A stretch of 21,396 nucleotides of DNA, from IMG/VR virus record IMGVR_UViG_2531839486_000009; one strand, written 5' to 3'. The stretch comes from a virus (Duplodnaviria; Heunggongvirae; Uroviricota; Caudoviricetes). A program made the position numbers and the translations under genes. Below, in pieces: positions 1,971-14,018 of this stretch. The notes beneath the pieces were generated by a model that worked only from the letters and a program-made list of their open reading frames with translations, was not told the DNA's origin and ran no database searches. Within the stretch, counting starts at the first letter, position 1. Each line of letters begins with the position of its first letter.

Positions 1971-2345
1971 ATGCTCATAGATTTGGTTTTACCTTACCCG
2001 CCGACGGTGAACACCTACTGGCGACGCCGTGGCAGCACATATTTTGTCTCAAAAGCCGGTGAGCGTTATCGCCGGGCTGTGGCGCTTATTGTTCGCCAGC
2101 AGCGGCTGAAATTAAGCCTGTCCGGAAGGCTGGCGATAAAGGTGATTGCAGAGCCACCGGATAAGCGTCGTCGCGACCTGGACAATATCCTGAAAGCACC
2201 GCTGGATGCGCTGACGCATGCGGGAGTGTTAATGGACGATGAGCAGTTTGATGAAATCAATATCGTTCGTGGTCAGCCAGTATCTGGTGGACGTATGGGG
2301 GTGAAGATTTACCCCATAATGCATGAAGAGCAGGTCAAAAAATGA
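1971..2345 (+). CDS. rusA: Holliday junction resolvase RusA
   Basis: 124 aa; AAGAGG RBS before ATG 1971. Translation contains ...PPDKRRRDLDNILKAPLDALTHAGVLMDDEQ..., matching the conserved RusA core (PDRRRRDLDN...DALT.AG...DD) as I recall it from E. coli RusA. Confidence 0.9.
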   Translation: MLIDLVLPYPPTVNTYWRRRGSTYFVSKAGERYRRAVALIVRQQRLKLSLSGRLAIKVIAEPPDKRRRDLDNILKAPLDALTHAGVLMDDEQFDEINIVRGQPVSGGRMGVKIYPIMHEEQVKK

Positions 2346-3163
2346 AACTGGAAGATTTACCGAAATACTACTCCCCAAAATCCCCTTGCCTGACCGATGC
2401 ATCGGCCTCAACGTCAAAAGATGCGCTGAGTATCACTGATGTGATGGCCGCGCAGGGCATGACACAGAATCGGGCTGAGATGGGGTTTTCTGCGTTCCTG
2501 GGGAAAATGGGCATCAGTATGAATGACAGGGCGCGGGCAACAGAATTACTGGCAGATTATGCACTCAGTCGGTGCGATCGTGTGGCGGCGTTGAGAAAAC
2601 TTCCGGCAGAAATAAAACCGTTAGTGATGCGCATTATGGCTTCGTACGCTTTTGAGGATTATGCCCGCAGCGCAGCGAGTAAAAAGCAGTGCCCTTGTTG
2701 CTATGGGGAAAAATTTATTGAAAGCGTAGTTTTTACAAACAAGGTCCAGTATCCGGATGGTAAGCCGCCGGTATGGGCAAAGTGTACGAAAGGTGTGTAT
2801 CCGTCTTACTGGGAAGAATGGAAAAAAGTCAGGGAGGTGGTAAAAGTTGCCTGTCCGGAGTGTGGCGGAAAGGGTGAGGTTTCCACCGCCTGTAAGGATT
2901 GCCGTGGGCGTGGTGTCGCCATTCATCGTGAAGAGTCGGTAAAACGTGGTATGCCTGTTATCAGAGACTGCCAGCGTTGTGGTGGTCGTGGCTATGAAAG
3001 ACTACCATCAACGGAGGCATTTAATGCTATATGCGAGGTGACAAACCAGATAACACGCGCGTCATGGGAAAAAACAGTTAAGAAATTCTATGATGCGCTG
3101 GTGACCCGGTTTGATATTGAAGAAGCATGGGCTGAGCGGCAGTTAAAAAAGGTAACTAGGTAA
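2342..3163 (+). CDS. late-gene antiterminator Q-like protein with zinc-finger motifs
   Basis: 273 aa; start overlaps rusA stop (ATGA). Sits immediately upstream of a pR'-like promoter and tR'-like terminator, the invariant position of Q. Contains CPCC plus three CxxCxGxG motifs. N-terminus MKLEDLPKYYSPKSP... resembles Q/QuuQ-type proteins as I recall them. Confidence 0.65.
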   Translation: MKLEDLPKYYSPKSPCLTDASASTSKDALSITDVMAAQGMTQNRAEMGFSAFLGKMGISMNDRARATELLADYALSRCDRVAALRKLPAEIKPLVMRIMASYAFEDYARSAASKKQCPCCYGEKFIESVVFTNKVQYPDGKPPVWAKCTKGVYPSYWEEWKKVREVVKVACPECGGKGEVSTACKDCRGRGVAIHREESVKRGMPVIRDCQRCGGRGYERLPSTEAFNAICEVTNQITRASWEKTVKKFYDALVTRFDIEEAWAERQLKKVTR

Positions 3164-3196: not shown

Positions 3197-3245
3197 CGTC
3201 ATAACGATGGGCGTTTTATGCCTGGCGTTAGAAGAGTTTCTACAA

Positions 3246-3268
3246 CCCGCCGCTGAGCGGGTTTTTTA
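3246..3268 (+). terminator. tR'-like intrinsic terminator
   Basis: cccgc-cgctga-gcggg hairpin followed by tttttt, about 50 nt downstream of the predicted late promoter. Confidence 0.55.
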
Positions 3269-3306: not shown

Positions 3307-3382
3307 GGCCCTTTAGCTCAGTGGTGAGAGCGAGCGACTCATAATCGCCAGGTCGCTGGTTCAAATCCAGCAAGGGCCACCA
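3307..3382 (+). tRNA. tRNA with CAT anticodon (tRNA-Ile2-like or tRNA-Met)
   Basis: Cloverleaf read by eye: acceptor GGCCCTT/AAGGGCC, D-arm GCTC..GAGC, anticodon loop CTCATAA, T-arm GGTCGCTGGTTCAAATCCAGC, CCA encoded. Resembles E. coli ileX-type tRNA from memory. Confidence 0.85.
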
Positions 3383-3483: not shown

Positions 3484-3560
3484 GCGTTGTTAGCTCAGCC
3501 GGACAGAGCAATTGCCTTCTAAGCAATCGGTCACTGGTTCGAATCCAGTACAGCGCGCCA
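3484..3560 (+). tRNA. tRNA-Arg (anticodon TCT)
   Basis: Acceptor GCGTTGT/ACAGCGC (one G-U pair), D-arm AGCTCAGCCGGACAGAGC, anticodon stem-loop ATTGC-CTTCTAA-GCAAT, T-loop GGTTCGAATCC, CCA encoded. Confidence 0.85.
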
Positions 3561-4024: not shown

Positions 4025-4416
4025 ATACATATCTGGATTATCACCTGTTACGGTAAAAAGTGATTGCTTACTGTTTTTGTGAATGGCATTGCAGCAGCCG
4101 GATAATGTCAGTGCTGGCTGACGGTGTGCTGGTGGCGGGTGTGGTGGTTGTTGCTTTCCCGTTGCTGAAAAAGAAAACGCCAGACTGTTAGCCGGGTATC
4201 AGTTAGCGGGAGAAATTTTTAAATACTTCACAATTCAGGCGGTTGACTGTTGTCTGGTTTGCGGGGAGTTTGTTAAAAGAAACTGGCATGGTGAATCCCC
4301 CTGTGCGGTGGGGCAATCAGCGAGTAGGTATATGGGATAATCGCGGATTCAGGTGCTGGTACTGAATTCACCGGGAGGCACCCGACACCATGCAATGGCA
4401 CATAGCGCCACTCTCC

Positions 4417-4440
4417 AGCCCCTCTCCGGAGGGGCTGTTT
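4417..4440 (+). terminator. GC-rich hairpin with downstream T-rich tract (terminator-like)
   Basis: agcccctc-tccg-gaggggct is a perfect 8-bp stem; followed by gtttatattgatttt. Lies about 35 nt beyond the 3' end of the minus-strand gene 4472..4807. Confidence 0.45.
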
Positions 4441-4471
4441 ATATTGATTTTGTCAGATGTGAGTAAACTCC

Positions 4472-4807
4472 TTATGGACTTTGTTGTTTTAGTCCATAAG
4501 GACATATTTGCAGAGTGCAACGGTTATTAAAGCATTCATTCAATACGTTATCTGTATTTGTAGGGCATTCCTGGCTGTTTTTGATTAAATTCCAGAATGT
4601 TTTATTGAATGGTACTACGTTGTAAATGGTTACAGGTAGCACTTTGTTATTGAGCATGATGCCTGTGTGAGTCAGTGTAAATATACTTTCAGGAGGTAAG
4701 AAAGCATCCGATTGATACCAGATTATTAATTTTATTTTACTCCATATGACTGAAAAAGATATTCCGCATGATGGCTGGATAACTGTATCAATCACAATCC
4801 ACTTCAT
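4472..4807 (-). CDS. hypothetical protein (111 aa), orphan antisense moron gene with Cys-rich C-terminus
   Basis: Minus-strand ORF with a near-ideal RBS (AAGGA, 6-nt spacing, from + strand ctttcctt at 4811-4818) and a plausible AT-rich promoter containing TATACT upstream. C-terminal C-x10-C-x4-C-x4-C cluster. Confidence 0.6.
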
Positions 4808-5066
4808 TTACTTTCCTTGTTTATGCCTTGCTGGTGATGTTCTGAAAAGTATAAATGATATTTTTGAATTAAACCATAGAGCAGAATTATTTTTCTGATG
4901 TTGTTTATTGTTTATTTAAATACAGGGTGGTTTATATCTCGTCTTGTAGTTTATCCATGCATATCTGCTTGATAATCAGGTTTTTATTTAAGGTATGGTT
5001 TTGTGTTTTTTCTGTATTACATGTCAGGTATTTTAAAGAATTATTTTTCAGATGGTGGAAAGAACC

Positions 5067-5255
5067 ATGGCATTTAAACACTATGATGTTGTCAGGGCGG
5101 CGCCGCCGTCAGATCTTGCGGAAAAGCTGACACATAAACTGAAAGAGGGCTGGCAGCCGTTTGGTAGTCCGGTGGCCATAACCCCTTATACCCTGATGCA
5201 GGCGATTGCAGCAGAAGGTGATGTGGTGGTCAGCGGTGCAACTGAGCCGGAGTGA
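5067..5255 (+). CDS. small conserved phage protein (possibly DUF1737-like), 62 aa
   Basis: ATG 5067 preceded by GGAAAGA; translation [62 protein letters not shown]. Family name is recollection only. Confidence 0.45.
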   Translation: MAFKHYDVVRAAPPSDLAEKLTHKLKEGWQPFGSPVAITPYTLMQAIAAEGDVVVSGATEPE

Positions 5256-5562: not shown

Positions 5563-5778
5563 ATGGACCAGATGGAAAAAATCACAACAGGTGTGTCATA
5601 CACCACGTCAGCGGTGGGAACGGGCTACTGGTTCCTGCAGTTGCTGGACAGGGTTTCCCCGTCTCAGTGGGCGGCAATAGGCGTGCTGGGGAGTCTGCTG
5701 TTTGGGCTGCTGACATATCTGACTAACCTGTATTTCAAAATCAGAGAGGACCGTCGTAAGGCTGCACGGGGAGAGTAA
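5563..5778 (+). CDS. class II pinholin, phage 21 S-like (71 aa, dual start)
   Basis: GGGAGACGGGG RBS before ATG 5563. Translation [71 protein letters not shown] closely matches my recollection of S21; two TM segments; Met1/Met4 dual-start arrangement. Confidence 0.9.
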
Positions 5779-5782
5779 TTCA

Positions 5783-6133
5783 ATGACTCAAAACTATGAA
5801 CTGATTGTGAAAGGGATCCGCAATTTTGAGAATAAAGTTACGGTAACTTTAGCGTTACGGGACAAAAAACGCTTTGACGGTGAAATTTTTGACCTGGACA
5901 TCTCGCTGGACCGTGTTGAAGGTGCCGCGCTGGAGTTTTATGAGGCAGCAGCCAGAATGAGCATCAGACAGGTCTTCCTGGATGTTGCTGCCGGGTTATG
6001 TGAAGGGGATGAGCAGTCGCCGGAAAAGCGCCCCGTAATTTTAGAGGCGCAGAATGTATGGATAACCTACAAAGGAAAGCTACCGGGAAGAATTACTGGT
6101 TCTCTGAAGACTCCTCCGGAATCACAACCTTAA
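5783..6133 (+). CDS. hypothetical protein (116 aa) between holin and endolysin
   Basis: ATG 5783 preceded by GGGGAGAG (7-nt spacing), 4 nt after the holin stop. Predicted soluble, no TM or signal peptide seen; no motif recognised. Confidence 0.6.
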   Translation: MTQNYELIVKGIRNFENKVTVTLALRDKKRFDGEIFDLDISLDRVEGAALEFYEAAARMSIRQVFLDVAAGLCEGDEQSPEKRPVILEAQNVWITYKGKLPGRITGSLKTPPESQP

Positions 6134-6196
6134 GTCACTGACCGGAACAGATAAACCTGTCCGTGGGCAGAAACCGATAAATCCTGATAAATATCC

Positions 6197-6730
6197 ATGA
6201 ACGCAAAAATCAGATACGGCCTGTCGGCTGCCGTTTTGGCACTGATTGCCGTCGGTGCGCCCGCGCCTGATATTCTCGACCAGTTTCTGGATGAAAAAGA
6301 AGGTAACCACACAACGGCATACCGCGATGGGTCCGGCATCTGGACCATCTGTCGGGGTGCCACGATGGTGGATGGAAAACCCGTTTTTCCCGGTATGAAA
6401 CTGTCGAAGGAAAAATGCGACCAGGTCAACGCCATTGAGCGTGATAAGGCGCTGGCATGGGTGGAGCGCAATATTAAAGTACCACTGACCGAACCACAAA
6501 AAGCGGGTATAGCGTCATTCTGTCCCTATAACATTGGCCCCGGTAAGTGTTTCCCGTCGACGTTTTATAAGCGGCTGAATGCAGGTGATCGTAAGGGCGC
6601 ATGCGAGGCGATTCGCTGGTGGATAAAAGATGGTGGGCGCGATTGCCGCATACGTTCAAATAACTGCTATGGACAGGTTATTCGTCGTGACCAGGAAAGC
6701 GCATTAGCCTGTTGGGGGATAGAGCAGTGA
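6197..6730 (+). CDS. SAR endolysin (phage 21 R-like lysozyme, T4-lysozyme fold)
   Basis: N-terminal Gly/Ala-rich signal-anchor-release segment ([17 protein letters not shown]) followed by ...[20 protein letters not shown]..., consistent with the Glu-Asp-Thr catalytic arrangement of R21-type lysozymes. Confidence 0.9.
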
Positions 6731-7219: not shown

Positions 7220-7513
7220 TTATTGTGAGCAATACACACGCGCTTCCAGTGGAGTATAAATGCCTAAAGTAATAAAACCGAGAAATCCATTTACGAATGT
7301 TTGCTGGGTTTCTGTTTTAACAACATTTTCTGCGCCGCCACAAATTTTGGCTGCATCAACAGTTTTCTCCTGTCCAATTCCCGAAACGAAGAAATGATGG
7401 GTGATGGTTTCCTTTGGTGTTACTGCTGTCGGTTTGTTTCCAACAGTAAACGTCTGTTGAGCACATCCTGTAATAAGCATTGCCAGAGCGGCAGAAAACA
7501 ACATTTTTTTCAT
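7220..7513 (-). CDS. bor: Bor lipoprotein (serum-resistance moron, Iss family)
   Basis: Start at the internal MKKM of tool ORF 7220..7561. Translation MKKMLFSAALAMLITGCAQQTFTV...ETITHHFFVSGIGQEKTVDAAKICGGAENVVKTETQQTFVNGFLGFITLGIYTPLEARVYCSQ is near-identical to lambda Bor as I recall it; lipobox LITGC. Confidence 0.9.
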   Translation of the reverse strand: MKKMLFSAALAMLITGCAQQTFTVGNKPTAVTPKETITHHFFVSGIGQEKTVDAAKICGGAENVVKTETQQTFVNGFLGFITLGIYTPLEARVYCSQ

Positions 7514-8038: not shown

Positions 8039-8389
8039 ATGCCCCCACGAATCCCACGCGCCTGCCGTAAGCGTGGATGTGCAGGTACAACCACAGACAG
8101 TTCTGGTTACTGCGATAAACATCGTGGCGAAGGATGGGTACAGCATCAACGCGGACTGAGCCGCCACCAGCGTGGCTATGGCTCGAAATGGGATGCCATA
8201 CGTGCGCGCATACTGAAGCGTGATAATCATCTGTGTCAGAACTGCCTGCGCAATGGGAGAGCCGTTGAAGCCAGAACTGTGGACCACATCATTCCGAAAG
8301 CTCATGGTGGCACGGATGCAGACAGTAACCTGCAGAGTCTGTGCTGGCCCTGTCATAAAGCAAAAACAGCGCGCGAACGCATCAATTGA
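8039..8389 (+). CDS. HNH endonuclease (terminase-associated)
   Basis: ATG 8039 with GGAG RBS; tool ORF opens at 7940. Translation has Cys-rich N-terminus and the HNH core ...VDHIIPKAHGGTDADSNLQSLCWPCHKAKT...; sits directly upstream of terS/terL as in HK97-like cos phages. Confidence 0.85.
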   Translation: MPPRIPRACRKRGCAGTTTDSSGYCDKHRGEGWVQHQRGLSRHQRGYGSKWDAIRARILKRDNHLCQNCLRNGRAVEARTVDHIIPKAHGGTDADSNLQSLCWPCHKAKTARERIN

Positions 8390-8536
8390 TAACAGTTCCC
8401 ATCTGTAGGGGAGGGGCAGGTCAAATCTCTGCAACCCTGGCTGCTCAGTACCGCCGCCTGACCTTTCCTCGCATCGCCGCAGGTTCGAAAACTTTTTTTT
8501 GGAATGTGATTAAATGATTGATAGGTAAAACCGATT

Positions 8537-9019
8537 ATGTCAGGACCCCTGAAAACCCCGCCACGCCTGCATTTGATACGAGGCAACCCCTCAAAGCGCC
8601 CCGTTAAAGACCCAAAAAAAACCGCTAAAAAGGATGAAAAATGTCTCCCTAAAATTCCGCAACATTTAGGGTCGCAGGGGAAGTACTGGTTCAGGCGAAT
8701 GGCGGAAGAACTGAATGCGGAAGGGATCATTTCTCAGCTTGATGCGCGTGCACTCGAGTTACTGGTGGAAGCCTACACCGAATACCGGCATCACTGCGAA
8801 ACACTCGATGTTGAGGGGTATACCTACCGCACGGAAACGCAGAACGGTGATGTGCTGATTAAGGCACACCCGGCTGCTGCGATGAAAGCGGATGCCTGGA
8901 AGCGGATCCGGGCGATGCTTGCAGAATTTGGTATGTCACCGGCAAGCCGGGCGAAAGTAAATACCGCCGGACCGGATGATGTTGATCCGCTGGCGGAGCT
9001 TTTAAAAGCGAGAGACTGA
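8537..9019 (+). CDS. terminase small subunit (P27-family-like)
   Basis: 160 aa, immediately upstream of and overlapping terL (ATGA). Basic N-terminus and length typical of HK97/P27-type TerS; family from recollection. Confidence 0.75.
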   Translation: MSGPLKTPPRLHLIRGNPSKRPVKDPKKTAKKDEKCLPKIPQHLGSQGKYWFRRMAEELNAEGIISQLDARALELLVEAYTEYRHHCETLDVEGYTYRTETQNGDVLIKAHPAAAMKADAWKRIRAMLAEFGMSPASRAKVNTAGPDDVDPLAELLKARD

Positions 9020-10776
9020 TGGCAAAAGTGGCTGACGGGATCCGCTACGCCGAACGTGTTGTTGCAGGAGAAATTGTCGCTGGCGAATTTGTCCGTCTGG
9101 CCTGTCAGCGTTTTCTTGATGATCTGAAGTACGGCGAAGAGCGGGGGATTTATTTTAGTGAACCCCGTGCGCAGCACATCCTTAATTTCTACAAATTTGT
9201 GCCCCATGTGAAAGGGGCGCTGGCAGGCCAGCCCATTGAACTGATGGACTGGCATGTATTTATCCTCATTAATATTTTTGGTTTTGTCATTCCGCTGGTG
9301 AATGAAGAGACCGGGGAAGTTGTCATGCGCAGCGATGGCAGCGGACGCCCGGTGATGGTGCGCCGGTTCCGGACGGCGTACAACGAAGTCGCCCGTAAAA
9401 ACGCAAAATCAACCCTGTCATCGGGTATCGGTCTGTATATGACGGGGGCAGATGGTGAAGGTGGTGCTGAGGTGTATTCAGCCGCAACCACGCGTGATCA
9501 GGCCAGAATCGTGTTTGAAGACGCCAAAAATATGGTCAGAAAAGCCCGGTCGACACTCGGGCGGTTGTTTGACTTCAACAAGCTGGCGATTTACCAGGAG
9601 CAGAGCGCATCAAAATTTGAACCGCTTTCCTCGGATGCAAACAACCTGGACGGTCTGAACATCCACTGCGCCATTATTGATGAGCTGCATGCTCATAAAA
9701 CCCGTGACGTGTGGGACGTTCTGGAAACGGCAACCGGTGCCCGTCTGCAGTCTCTGTTATTTGGCATCACCACGGCTGGCTTTAACAAGGAAGGGATTTG
9801 CTACGAGCAGCGCGATTACGCCATTAAGGTATTGCGAGGCTATAACAGCGACGTGGAGGGCGCGGTAAAAGACGACTCCTACTTTGCGATCATTTACACG
9901 CTCGATGAGGGAGATGATCCGTTTGATGAAACGGTCTGGCAGAAAGCGAATCCTGGCCTGGGCATCTGTAAACGCTGGGATGATCTGCGTCGTCTGGCGA
10001 AAAAAGCGAAGGAGCAGGTCTCTGCGCGGGTGAATTTTTTTACCAAACACATGAATGTGTGGGTCACTGCCGAATCTGCCTGGATGGATATGATTAAGTG
10101 GGAGAAGTGCGAATACATTGCTCCACAACATGAGCTGAAAACATATCCCATGTGGGTCGGCGTAGACCTTGCTCATAAGATTGATATCTGTGCGGCGGCA
10201 AAACTCTGGCGAACCGATAACGGACATGTTCATGCTGATTTTAAATTCTGGCTTCCGGAAGGACGGCTGGAGCGATGCTCGCGGCAGCAGGCAGAACTTT
10301 ACCGGAAGTGGGCGGAGATGGATAAGCTCATCCTGACGGATGGTGATGTTATCGATCATGCTCAGATAAAAAGTGACTTACTGGAATGGATTGGCGGTGA
10401 AAACCTCAGGGAACTGGGATTTGACCCGTGGAGCGCAATGCAGTTCAGCCTGGCACTGGCTGAAGAAGGGATACCGCTGGTGGAGGTTCCGCAGACGGTC
10501 CGCAATCTGTCAGAGGCCATGAAGGAAACGGAATCACTGGTTTATGCCGGGCGTTTCCATCACAGCAATCATCCGGTCATGAACTGGATGATGTCTAACG
10601 TTACGGTAAAACCGGACAAAAACGACAACATCTTCCCGAATAAATCCACGCCTGAAGCCAAAATCGACGGCCCTGTTGCACTTTTTACGGCCATGAGCCG
10701 CTTTCTGGTAAATGGCGGGGGCGTGAATGACTTTCTGTCCACGCTTGATCCTGATGAGGACCTGTTAATTCTGTGA
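9019..10776 (+). CDS. terminase large subunit
   Basis: 585 aa; Walker-A-like ...ARKNAKST..., conserved acidic nuclease-domain residues; position between terS and portal. Confidence 0.9.
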   Translation: MAKVADGIRYAERVVAGEIVAGEFVRLACQRFLDDLKYGEERGIYFSEPRAQHILNFYKFVPHVKGALAGQPIELMDWHVFILINIFGFVIPLVNEETGEVVMRSDGSGRPVMVRRFRTAYNEVARKNAKSTLSSGIGLYMTGADGEGGAEVYSAATTRDQARIVFEDAKNMVRKARSTLGRLFDFNKLAIYQEQSASKFEPLSSDANNLDGLNIHCAIIDELHAHKTRDVWDVLETATGARLQSLLFGITTAGFNKEGICYEQRDYAIKVLRGYNSDVEGAVKDDSYFAIIYTLDEGDDPFDETVWQKANPGLGICKRWDDLRRLAKKAKEQVSARVNFFTKHMNVWVTAESAWMDMIKWEKCEYIAPQHELKTYPMWVGVDLAHKIDICAAAKLWRTDNGHVHADFKFWLPEGRLERCSRQQAELYRKWAEMDKLILTDGDVIDHAQIKSDLLEWIGGENLRELGFDPWSAMQFSLALAEEGIPLVEVPQTVRNLSEAMKETESLVYAGRFHHSNHPVMNWMMSNVTVKPDKNDNIFPNKSTPEAKIDGPVALFTAMSRFLVNGGGVNDFLSTLDPDEDLLIL

Positions 10777-10934
10777 AACAGCTTATTACTGATATGACCG
10801 GGCTGATCGGTTTCGGTTTGCTCACTGCTGGCGTTTATCTGTATGCAGGTCTGCCAGCGTCTCTGATGCTGTCGGGCTGTTTGTTGCTGCTTTATGCACT
10901 GGTGGTGTCCATGAGGAGAAAACATGCTTCTTGA
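10773..10934 (+). CDS. possible small membrane protein (53 aa) between terL and portal
   Basis: GTG 10773 overlaps the terL stop. Translation VKQLITDMTGLIGFGLLTAGVYLYAGLPASLMLSGCLLLLYALVVSMRRKHAS shows two hydrophobic segments; overlaps the portal start. Below the tool's size cutoff. Confidence 0.3.
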   Translation: MKQLITDMTGLIGFGLLTAGVYLYAGLPASLMLSGCLLLLYALVVSMRRKHAS

Positions 10935-12150
10935 TGCTCTGTTTCGCAGTGAGCCTCTGGAAAATCCCTCGGTTCCGGTAACCGGAGAGGCCGCTGAGAC
11001 GGATAATATTTTTGCCCGGGATGTGTATGTCAGTCCGGAAACATCCATGAAGCTGGCTGCTGTCTATGCCTGTATTTATGTTATTTCATCCAGTGTGGCT
11101 CAGATGCCCCTGCATGTGATGCGAAAAACGAATGAGCATGTTCAGCCTGCACGCGATCATCCGTTGTTCTGGCTCGTTCATGATGAACCGAATGCCTGGC
11201 AGACCAGCTATAAGTGGCGGGAACTGAAGCAGCGTCATGTGCTGGGGGGGGGCAATGGTTATACGTGGGTAAAACGTAATCGTCGTGGAGAGGTTACCAG
11301 CCTTGAATGCTGTATGCCATGGGAAACTACGTTACTTAACACCGGTGGGCGTCATACTTACGGGGTGTATAACGAAGAGGGTGCATTTGCGGTAAGTCCG
11401 GACGACATGATCCATATCAGGGCGCTGGGAAACAATCAGAAAATGGGACTGAGCCCGATCATGCAGCATGCTGAAACCATTGGTATGGGAATGAGTGGCC
11501 AGCAGTATACCAGCGCCTTTTTTAACGGTAATGCCCGTCCTGCCGGTATTATTTCTGTGAAAAATGAACTGAACGAACAAAGCTGGGGCAGGCTTAAAAA
11601 TATGTGGCAGCGGGCGGTGACAGCGCTTCGCAGCCAGGAAAATAAAACCATGTTGCTGCCTGCGCAACTGGATTACCGCGCTCTGACAGTTTCTCCGGTG
11701 GATGCTCAGATCATTGATATGACCAAGCTGAACCGGTCGATGATTGCCGGGATTTTTAATGTCCCGGCGCACATGATTAATGACCTGGAAAAAGCCACAT
11801 TTTCGAATATTACGCAGCAGGCGATTCAGTTTGTTCGCTACACGATGATGCCCTGGGTTGCGAACTGGGAGCAGGAGCTTAACCGTCGCCTGTTTACCCG
11901 TACAGAACGGGCTGCCGGGTATTACGTTCGTTTCAACCTCACGGGGTTGCTCCGTGGGACCCCACAGGAGCGTGCGCAGTTCTATCACTTTGCCATTACA
12001 GATGGCTGGATGAGTCGGAATGAAGCCAGGGCATTTGAGGATATGAACCCGGTTGACGGTCTGGATGAAATGCTGGTCAGCGTAAATGCAGCAAATCCGT
12101 TGAATAACTTTAAAGATACGAAAGGCAAAGAGGAAAAGAACGATGAATGA
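10924..12150 (+). CDS. portal protein (HK97 family)
   Basis: 408 aa; GAGGAGAAAAC RBS; position after terL and before prohead protease; sequence character typical of HK97-type portals. Confidence 0.85.
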   Translation: MLLDALFRSEPLENPSVPVTGEAAETDNIFARDVYVSPETSMKLAAVYACIYVISSSVAQMPLHVMRKTNEHVQPARDHPLFWLVHDEPNAWQTSYKWRELKQRHVLGGGNGYTWVKRNRRGEVTSLECCMPWETTLLNTGGRHTYGVYNEEGAFAVSPDDMIHIRALGNNQKMGLSPIMQHAETIGMGMSGQQYTSAFFNGNARPAGIISVKNELNEQSWGRLKNMWQRAVTALRSQENKTMLLPAQLDYRALTVSPVDAQIIDMTKLNRSMIAGIFNVPAHMINDLEKATFSNITQQAIQFVRYTMMPWVANWEQELNRRLFTRTERAAGYYVRFNLTGLLRGTPQERAQFYHFAITDGWMSRNEARAFEDMNPVDGLDEMLVSVNAANPLNNFKDTKGKEEKNDE

Positions 12151-12742
12151 CCGTGAAACGCGCTGTTACAGCGGGGAGGTGCGGGCGGAACAATATGATA
12201 ATGCCCCGACCCACATTCTGGGGTATGGCTCGGGATTTAACAGTCGTTCAGAACCTCTGTGGGGATTTCGTGAAATCATCAAGCCGGGGGCTTTTGATGA
12301 TGTACTGAATGATGATGTACGTGGCTTGTTTAATCATGATCCTAATTTCATTCTCGGACGAAGTTCTGCCGGCACGTTGTCATTGTCGGTGGATGAACGC
12401 GGTTTACGTTATGACATTGTTGCACCGGATACTCCGACTATTTGTGACCTGGTGCTGTCTCCAATGTTGCGTGGTGACATTAATCAGTCCTCGTTCGCGT
12501 TTCGTGTCGCCCGTGACGGAGAGAGCTGGTATGAAGACGACGAGGGGATTGTTATCCGGGAAATCACGCGCATTTCTCGTCTGTATGACGTCAGCCCGGT
12601 GACATATCCGGCCTATCAGGACGCAGACTCTGGTGTCCGCTCAATGAAAGCCTGGCAGGAAGCGCGGGCGAGGGGTGCGCTGAAGAAAGCTGTTAACGAA
12701 CGAATGGCGCGTGAGCGTCTTTTGACCCTTCTTAATGCATAA
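12143..12742 (+). CDS. prohead maturation protease (HK97 family, S78-like)
   Basis: 199 aa; overlaps portal stop; lies between portal and major capsid gene; contains ...IKPGAFDDVL... typical of HK97 protease family as I recall. Confidence 0.8.
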   Translation: MNDRETRCYSGEVRAEQYDNAPTHILGYGSGFNSRSEPLWGFREIIKPGAFDDVLNDDVRGLFNHDPNFILGRSSAGTLSLSVDERGLRYDIVAPDTPTICDLVLSPMLRGDINQSSFAFRVARDGESWYEDDEGIVIREITRISRLYDVSPVTYPAYQDADSGVRSMKAWQEARARGALKKAVNERMARERLLTLLNA

Positions 12743-12756
12743 GGATACTACTGACG

Positions 12757-13974
12757 ATGAAACTTCATGAGATGAAGCAAAAACGAAACACCATTGCAAA
12801 GGATATGCGTGCACTGCATGAAAAAATTGGTGATAACGCATGGACTGATGAGCAACGGGCAGAGTGGAACAGGGCGAAAGCTGAGCTGGATGCGCTGGAT
12901 GAGCAAATCGCCCGTGAAGAAGAGTTGCGCCGTCAGGATCAGGCATATGTGGATGAGTCCGGGCCGGAAGAGCGCCAGAATAATGAGGCGGAGAACGGGA
13001 AAAAGGCGGTGGAAGAGAAGCGCGCTGCGGCATTTAACCGTTTTCTGCGTGCCGGATTTGCAGAACTGAATGCTGAAGAGCGTAATCTGATGCGTGAACT
13101 GCGGGCTCAGAGTGTAACAACGGATTCTCAGGGCGGATATACGGTGCCCACGCAGATGCGTAACAAAATCATTGACACCATGAAGGCTTATGGCGGGATT
13201 GCCAGTGTGGCGCAACTTCTGACCACATCAACCGGGCAGGATATCACCTGGTCAACGTCTGATGGCACGACTGAAGAGGGCGAACTGCTGGCGGAGAATA
13301 CAGCCGCAACGGAACAGGATGTGACGTTCGGGACCGCTATTCTGGGGGCTAAAAAGCTGTCATCAAAAATAATTCGTGTGTCCAATGAGCTGCTCCAGGA
13401 CAGTGGGGTGGATATTGAATCTTATCTGGCAAACCGTATTGCCCAGCGTATTGGTCGTGGAGAGGCAAAATATCTGGTTCAGGGGACCGGAACGGGATCA
13501 CCGTTACAGCCAAAAGGGCTGGCAGCGTCGGTGACGGGAACCATCCAGACTGCAGCCTCTGCCGCTTTCACCTGGAAAGAAATGAATGCCCTGAAACATG
13601 CTATTGATCCGGCATATCGTGGTGGGCCGAAATACCGCTGGGCATTCAATGATGCCACATTGCAGACTATTGAAGAGATGGAGGATGGACAGAAACGCCC
13701 GTTATGGCTGCCGGATATTGCAGGCGGTACGCCGGCTACTGTGCTGGGGATCCCTTATGTTATTGATCAGGCTATTGACGGGATTGGTACCGGAAAAAAA
13801 TTCATTTTCCTGGGGGATTTCAACCGCTTTATTATTCGCCGCGTTACTTATATGGAACTGAAACGTCTGGTTGAGCGTTATGCTGAGTTTGATCAGGTGG
13901 CATTTCTGGCTTTCCATCGTTTTGACTGTGTGCTGGAAGATGTGGCAGCCATCAAGGCGCTCACTGGCAAATAA
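12757..13974 (+). CDS. major capsid protein (HK97 fold) with N-terminal delta/scaffold domain
   Basis: 405 aa; AAGGA RBS. N-terminal ~100 aa are charged and coiled-coil-like (delta domain), followed by a capsid-like body; followed by a terminator. Confidence 0.9.
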   Translation: MKLHEMKQKRNTIAKDMRALHEKIGDNAWTDEQRAEWNRAKAELDALDEQIAREEELRRQDQAYVDESGPEERQNNEAENGKKAVEEKRAAAFNRFLRAGFAELNAEERNLMRELRAQSVTTDSQGGYTVPTQMRNKIIDTMKAYGGIASVAQLLTTSTGQDITWSTSDGTTEEGELLAENTAATEQDVTFGTAILGAKKLSSKIIRVSNELLQDSGVDIESYLANRIAQRIGRGEAKYLVQGTGTGSPLQPKGLAASVTGTIQTAASAAFTWKEMNALKHAIDPAYRGGPKYRWAFNDATLQTIEEMEDGQKRPLWLPDIAGGTPATVLGIPYVIDQAIDGIGTGKKFIFLGDFNRFIIRRVTYMELKRLVERYAEFDQVAFLAFHRFDCVLEDVAAIKALTGK

Positions 13975-13995
13975 CCACTCGTTGTTCAGTTACAG

Positions 13996-14018
13996 ACCGC
14001 GCCGACGCGGTTTTTTTA
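13996..14018 (+). terminator. intrinsic terminator after major capsid gene
   Basis: accgcg-ccga-cgcggt hairpin followed by ttttttt; a second hairpin gcccgca-cagtgtt-gcgggc at 14021-14040 follows. Confidence 0.6.

Follow-up and report, generated by a model that had tools for sequence, protein, structure and literature searches.

The stretch of DNA analyzed here, which we call the window, comprises 21,396 nucleotides of a virus record of the class Caudoviricetes (IMG/VR IMGVR_UViG_2531839486_000009). The subject of this study is an open reading frame (ORF) at 4472..4807 on the minus strand, which starts with ATG and encodes 111 amino acids whose termini are those quoted in an earlier, preliminary description of the locus. 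Its GC content is 34.5%, compared with 50.6% for the whole window, and 300-nucleotide segments across the gene range from 31 to 39%. The gene is real and correctly delimited, and it is already known and characterized: our analysis assigns it to iraL, whose product is an anti-adaptor of the host protein RssB. The features on which the argument depends are as follows.

2342..3163, plus strand: late antiterminator gene Q, the upstream boundary of the slot; labeled "antitermination protein" by PGAP in a prophage that is 99.8% identical, PF03589 in related loci
4257-4446, plus strand: STnc100-family small RNA (sRNA) gene (Rfam RF02076), convergent with iraL
4472..4807, minus strand: iraL coding sequence, 111 codons plus stop, encoding the RssB anti-adaptor
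4502..4567, minus strand: codons 81 to 102 of iraL, four-cysteine motif C81-x10-C92-x4-C97-x4-C102-P-Y-G
4574..4807, minus strand: codons 1 to 78 of iraL, PmrD-like beta-barrel core by homology to PDB 8twd_A, the part that contacts RssB in the IraM structure
4814..4818, minus strand: Shine-Dalgarno sequence AAGGA, read from the sequence, with 6 nt between it and the ATG at 4807-4805
4840, minus strand: inferred start of transcription at the A of ACATCACCAGCAAGG..., with a leader of 33 nt
4848..4853, minus strand: -10 hexamer TATACT, 7 nt from the inferred start and in agreement with the start mapped by RACE
4866..4875, minus strand: putative -35 region, our own assignment, GGTTTA-ATTC in the window
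5563..5778, plus strand: class II holin gene, the downstream boundary of the slot, from the annotation of the 99.8%-identical prophage; PF04971 in related loci

The position of the holin gene was transferred from the coordinates of the annotated relative, minus 27. Lying on the minus strand between Q and this holin, the gene is antisense to Q-driven late transcription, as the preliminary description had proposed. That description had also called it the only convincingly signaled gene of its island; the gene and its signals stand, but the island also holds two tRNA genes, the sRNA gene, an ORF with a DUF3927 domain, and the remnant of a DUF1737 gene. The Q product (PF03589) contains the CxxC-type motifs CPCCYGEKF, CPECGGKGE, CKDCRGRG, and CQRCGGRG and gives faint matches to the Pfam family DnaJ_CXXCXGXG. 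About 80 nt past Q is a tR'-like intrinsic terminator (3244-3263, plus strand), followed by phage tRNA genes at 3307-3382 and 3484-3560, both on the plus strand. The second is tRNA-Arg (TCT). The first is tRNA-Met (CAT) according to ARAGORN and tRNA-Ile according to PGAP, which presumably took the CAT anticodon as lysidine modified. On the holin side of iraL, a 67-amino-acid DUF1737 ORF (5052-5255, plus strand) is the N-terminal remnant of a 617- to 623-amino-acid DUF1737-SASA gene, encoding a NanS-p-like esterase, that other iraL prophages carry intact in this place.

The preliminary description had presented the protein as an orphan that matched no family. Neither statement holds. The protein is identical over 111/111 amino acids to IraL of E. 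coli CFT073 (C_RS06710; WP_000871291.1), which is encoded in a lambdoid prophage beside potC/potD. For the NCBIfam model NF007393 (IraM), whose cutoff is 121 bits, it scores 162 bits (E = 4.7e-48), residues 1 to 110 aligning to positions 1 to 113 of the 114 in the profile, and in a phmmer search it matches PDB 8twd_A, which is IraM residues 1 to 78 with RssB (E = 9e-32). The gene iraL was named by Hryckowian et al. (mBio 2014) as a gene of the "potB island" (PMC4045071), and in CFT073 it is c1429 (PMC12890032). When a 701-nt query around the ORF was compared with 5,426 complete E. coli genomes, 2,584 of them gave a match, and the feature beneath the match is annotated as "anti-adapter protein IraM." Chance is far from sufficient to account for the ORF: the exact protein is recorded in 34,862 assembly blocks, and clustering at 50% identity gives about 90 representatives for the family. 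Nor is it the truncated remnant of a larger known gene, an outcome that the preliminary description had considered: members of the family are 107 to 126 amino acids long, and their start, Met1, is conserved. Pfam gave less consistent results. A local hmmscan of Pfam-A with the ORF protein and with K-12 IraM returned no family at E values up to 10, contrary to precomputed tables that label the whole IraL/IraM family as PF11183 (PmrD); a difference in Pfam version or in threshold may explain the disagreement.

The closest named relative is IraM (YcgW) of E. coli K-12, the anti-adaptor of Mg2+ starvation, which belongs to the same NF007393 family and has the same C-x10-C-x4-C-x4-C tail. Identity to IraM is 62% by BLASTP, without gaps over 107 amino acids, or 59.5% when counted over 111 residues, values that agree with the 58.9% published for IraL and IraM (PMC4045071). 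At the nucleotide level, iraL matches are at least 95% identical among themselves and do not overlap with iraM (PMC4045071). The two genes also differ in location and control region. K-12 iraM lies just outside the boundary of e14 rather than in a slot between Q and holin, and its upstream regulatory DNA is unrelated. Neither iraM-type upstream DNA nor the e14-side chromosomal locus is found with the window gene. Since its upstream DNA cannot be aligned with that of K-12 iraM and its locus is different, we file the window gene as IraL and not as IraM, and the PGAP product name "IraM" for iraL is to be taken as a family name. In E. coli ECGI0523, the chromosomal iraM (positions 6001-6330 of our locus L024) is a pseudogene: beyond about residue 22 the frame is gone, and it is regained only at the C-terminal ICPYGLK. 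Retrieved at 32% identity, this locus thus proved to be a frameshifted iraM and no new paralogue. [quoted passage not shown]

The transcript start ties this identification down further. The 5' end of CFT073 iraL mRNA, mapped by 5'-RACE in log-phase cells, is ACATCACCAGCAAGGCATAAACAAGGAAACCA (PMC4045071), and the promoter is of the σ70 type (PMC4045071). This sequence stands verbatim upstream of the CFT073 gene, and the window is identical to it for the first 29 of 32 nt; the RACE match and the agreeing IraL/IraM identity values both support the assignment. The window gene has the predicted transcript start ACATCACCAGCAAGG..., a putative σ70-type promoter, and the prophage context of iraL, with a 1-bp deletion in the putative -35 region. 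The TATACT -10 hexamer in an AT-rich upstream region, which had been picked out from the sequence beforehand, is present at 4853-4848 and fits the mapped start; the AAGGA Shine-Dalgarno sequence with its 6-nt spacing was likewise read correctly and is kept in 13 of 13 other iraL loci that we compared. A simple σ70 scan of the window did not report the iraL promoter, which we assign instead from the published RACE data.

The -10 hexamer, the start region, and the Shine-Dalgarno sequence are shared with CFT073, while the promoter and leader around them are not entirely the same. We compared the allele of the window and its near-identical relatives with those of CFT073 and ten other loci. CFT073 and most alleles have GGTTTACATTC or GGTTTACAATC (TTTACA) where the window has GGTTTA-ATTC, a 1-bp deletion that destroys the TTTACA hexamer of the putative -35 region and shortens the spacer from 15 to 14 nt. 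At position -1 the window has A where CFT073 has G, the other compared loci also having A, and directly 5' of the ATG the window has GT in place of the CC of CFT073 and the CT of most other alleles. Of the 5,426 complete E. coli genomes, 1,438 contain the 81-nt promoter-leader stretch, in up to three copies per genome, and the exact window version is a minority allele found in 163 of the 1,438 carriers. Expression has been demonstrated for the CFT073 allele; for the window allele, with its indel and two or three further base changes, it is predicted from sequence.

These differences raise the question of whether the gene, although it is iraL, is poorly expressed or silent in the window allele and contributes little to RpoS levels in this host. 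The indel in the putative -35 region and the changes at -1 and beside the start codon, relative to CFT073 and the 10 other loci, are consistent with such a defect, as are the failure of the σ70 scan to detect the promoter and the minority status of the allele. However, the -10 hexamer, the start region, the Shine-Dalgarno sequence, and the coding sequence are all intact, and the product is 100% identical to CFT073 IraL. Moreover, 163 complete genomes of diverse origin have kept the allele without change. In addition, the -35 region and spacer of CFT073 are themselves noncanonical, and the promoter may not depend on the putative TTTACA hexamer at all. We consider a poorly expressed or silent allele unlikely, although it is the chief alternative where the function of the gene in this host is concerned.

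IraL is an anti-adaptor for RssB that stabilizes RpoS in log phase (PMC4045071). When iraL is deleted from CFT073 or from Shigella sonnei, log-phase RpoS falls and its half-life drops from about 5 to about 2.5 min, and iraL on a plasmid with 100 bp of its native promoter raises RpoS in K-12 (PMC4045071). [quoted passage not shown] Expression of iraL is increased in a fur mutant and after a shift to 37°C. By its identity with the published protein, the window protein is predicted to bind RssB and to stabilize RpoS in the same way. The preliminary description had anticipated expression from the resident prophage, and this agrees with the identical CFT073 gene, which has a log-phase transcription start mapped by RACE and whose deletion lowers both the level and the half-life of RpoS (PMC4045071).

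For the mode of binding, the best guide is the structure of IraM with RssB. Residues 1 to 78 of IraM form a PmrD-like beta-barrel in the co-crystal (PMC10844676). [quoted passage not shown] Of the 14 IraM residues listed as contacts with RssB (PMC10844676), the window protein shares 10, among them all five that face the N-terminal (receiver) domain of RssB; the rest are T13S, L75I, I64V, and H63N. A fold search on a predicted structure, which the preliminary description had suggested, pointed in the same direction. The AlphaFold2 model of the ORF protein, built from a 16-sequence alignment, is of low confidence (pLDDT 55) and has the expected order of strands and helix; it retrieved 8twd_A as the top match (E = 1e-6), followed by the PmrD structures 4hn7 and 2jso, with E = 6e-3 and a TM score of 0.47 to 0.58 for 4hn7 from this low-confidence model. 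IraM is induced under other conditions and binds both domains of RssB, whereas IraL binds the N-terminal domain only (PMC4045071). Given that two-hybrid result, the IraM co-crystal may not describe IraL in detail.

The fold also raises the possibility of a different target or a different signal, namely, that the protein is a PmrD-type connector acting on another response regulator, such as PmrA, or an IraM-like orthologue induced by PhoP and Mg2+ starvation. PmrD, which protects phospho-PmrA, shares the beta-barrel-plus-helix fold, and both proteins bind a receiver domain (PMC10844676); the 62% identity to IraM could be read in favor of an orthologue. Against these points, identity to PmrD in the fold alignment is only about 15%, and PmrD is a protein of about 85 amino acids that lacks the four-cysteine tail and has a different regulator as its target. 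The upstream DNA of iraL is unrelated to that of iraM by alignment, and the published expression of iraL is in log phase under conditions unlike those of IraM (PMC4045071). We regard a connector or an IraM orthologue as highly improbable. The RssB anti-adaptor reading leads to a simple model. In a lysogen, IraL would be made during growth from its own σ70-type promoter, as was shown for the identical protein in CFT073. It would bind the response regulator-like adaptor RssB through residues 1 to 78 as a PmrD-like beta-barrel that sits on the receiver face and the interdomain linker, by homology with IraM and RssB. RssB would then be unable to deliver RpoS (σS) to ClpXP, and the half-life and level of RpoS would rise already in log phase.

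The position of iraL in the prophage is conserved, as the preliminary description had asked of its homologs. In 9 of 10 nonredundant contexts, iraL lies between Q, which comes from either of two families, and a class II holin gene; a DUF3927 ORF flanks it to one side, and to the other side it has a gene for DUF1737 or for a DUF1737-SASA esterase. The remaining context is a degraded remnant disrupted by an insertion sequence. Sequenced phage records contain the gene too, and a search for related loci with closer alignment yielded seven loci from Escherichia, Shigella, and Citrobacter. The CFT073 prophage has the same slot in a lambdoid setting, with Q, tRNA genes, DUF3927, the sRNA, iraL, DUF1737, and holin, but unlike the window, its slot includes IS200 and a third tRNA gene. 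The backbones are different as well: CFT073 has a λ-type Nu1/A terminase, whereas the window combines an HK97-type head with a P27-type small terminase and an HNH gene. The moron cassette that contains iraL is thus common to prophages with different packaging and head modules. In the window, the HNH endonuclease gene lies directly 5' of the P27-family small terminase gene, and next comes an HK97-type module of portal, protease, and capsid (8039-9019 and 9019-14000, plus strand). A second AT-rich reverse-strand moron of about 40% GC (7220-7513, minus strand) lies between Rz and the terminase genes and is annotated in the 99.8%-identical prophage as Iss, the increased-serum-survival lipoprotein of the Bor family.

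The DNA beside iraL also links the slot to Shiga toxin phages. Window positions 4300-4443 are 94 to 98% identical to DNA of many Stx-converting phages. In Shigella phage 75/02 Stx, the equivalent segment (4501-4595 of our locus L017) is directly 3' of stx1B and 5' of a nanS-p-type esterase gene, and this neighborhood indicates that iraL adjoins the slot in which Shiga toxin morons are found.

On the evidence of its layout, iraL would be an AT-rich moron placed between Q and holin in a lambdoid prophage with an HK97-type head, in the direction opposite to late transcription. It would be on in the lysogen and overrun by Q-antiterminated transcription during lytic growth. Because it has its own promoter and is expressed from the resident prophage in CFT073, iraL is a moron of the lysogenic conversion type that acts on RpoS, and the lysogenic conversion role proposed in the preliminary description was broadly right. 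The abortive infection or superinfection exclusion role named alongside it found no support. Morons of the Q-to-lysis region and reverse-strand prophage genes are often exclusion or defense genes, and the position of iraL as a reverse-strand moron in that region is the one point in favor of a factor directed at incoming phages and not at host stress regulation. We give this reading the least credence of all: the ORF protein matched no defense system family among the PADLOC-DB models at E values up to 1, the identical protein has the host adaptor RssB as its demonstrated target together with an RpoS phenotype (PMC4045071), and family members in Salmonella, Cronobacter, Enterobacter, and others, which are cited as chromosomal, carry the same family annotation.

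The cysteine cluster is the part of the preliminary description that keeps some value of its own. The cysteines of the ORF protein are at residues 14, 81, 92, 97, and 102, and the last four form the C-x10-C-x4-C-x4-C cluster noted from the sequence at the outset. These four are invariant in 16 of 16 members of the Escherichia group, while Cys14 is variable. A profile search of 1.84 billion cluster representatives returned 93 family proteins; those that we looked up are named IraM and come from Salmonella, Citrobacter, Enterobacter, Intestinirhabdus, Dryocola, Kosakonia, and Cronobacter. The four cysteines are kept in 43 to 44 of 44 full-length divergent representatives, at identities down to about 26%. 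Nine positions are conserved in at least 90% of these 44 representatives, and the cysteines account for four of them (M1, P12, W30, W72, C81, C92, C97, C102, and P103). Apart from the four cysteines, the tail has a mean column identity of 36%, compared with 45% for the core. The consensus for the family is CPGN-x7-C-x5-C-x4-CP[YF]G; the middle spacer of the E. coli IraL/IraM branch has one residue fewer. Salmonella RssC and further "IraM" proteins of enterobacteria, which are 26 to 41% identical to the window protein, belong to the same family and have the same four-cysteine hallmark in the form C-x10-C-x5-C-x4-C, one residue longer.

In the structural work on IraM, the tail was removed for crystallography, as the full-length protein was proteolyzed and insoluble (PMC10844676). 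The same paper describes the tail as less conserved and flexible and mentions neither cysteines nor zinc in IraM (PMC10844676), and the literature that we searched yielded no discussion of the C-terminal cysteines of IraL or IraM. A search of PDB sequences with a profile of the tail gave two chains of CCCH zinc fingers, both below significance (E = 0.09 and 0.84). The CCCH consensus C-x6-14-C-x4-5-C-x3-H resembles the tail, C-x10-C-x4/5-C-x4-C, in spacing, with Cys in place of His as the last ligand. In the AlphaFold2 model the tail (residues 76 to 111) has a pLDDT below 50 and is uninformative about a metal site. We tentatively suggest that the tail might be a knuckle that binds metal (Zn or Fe-S) or senses redox and thereby sets the stability or activity of the anti-adaptor, although we hold this to be somewhat less probable than its alternatives.

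The preliminary description had noted a GC hairpin just past the 3' end of the gene as one of its signals. The hairpin exists, a GC-rich stem of 9 bp at 4416-4437, about 35 nt past the iraL stop codon, but it is not a terminator dedicated to iraL. The terminator scan called 4416-4437 on the plus strand only, because the T-tract (TTTATATTGATTTTGT) is on that side, and the hairpin is the terminal stem-loop of the match to STnc100. That match is full length, covering positions 1 to 206 of the 206 in the RF02076 model and scoring 123.1 bits where the gathering score is 47 (E = 6e-27), and it ends 26 nt from the iraL stop codon. The plus-strand call and the full-length STnc100 match together rule out the hairpin as iraL's own terminator. 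It is the intrinsic terminator of the convergent STnc100 sRNA and at most secondary for iraL. With fold energies of -21.7 and -23.9 kcal/mol on the two strands, it is stable on either one and may also impede transcription of iraL. A smaller possibility is that the STnc100 sRNA and iraL share the hairpin as a terminator and influence each other's 3' ends. STnc100 is a known family of prophage-associated sRNAs that was recently linked to the PasD sRNAs (bioRxiv 10.64898/2026.05.13.724894). On the opposite strand, PGAP annotates a partial pseudogene at 4276-4401 ("hypothetical protein, missing C-terminus") in identical prophages; this is probably an annotation artifact, as it lies wholly within the STnc100 match.

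In bacterial genomes the gene is routinely annotated, but under the name of its paralogue, IraM. In PHROGs, the ORF protein falls into phrog_4407, which is labeled "unknown function," and for iraL phage-centered resources are thus behind the bacterial literature. If the four-cysteine tail binds a metal or senses redox, it would represent an extra input into the anti-adaptor control of the general stress response. Collectively, iraL is a prophage moron that rewires a core circuit of the host, the proteolysis of RpoS.
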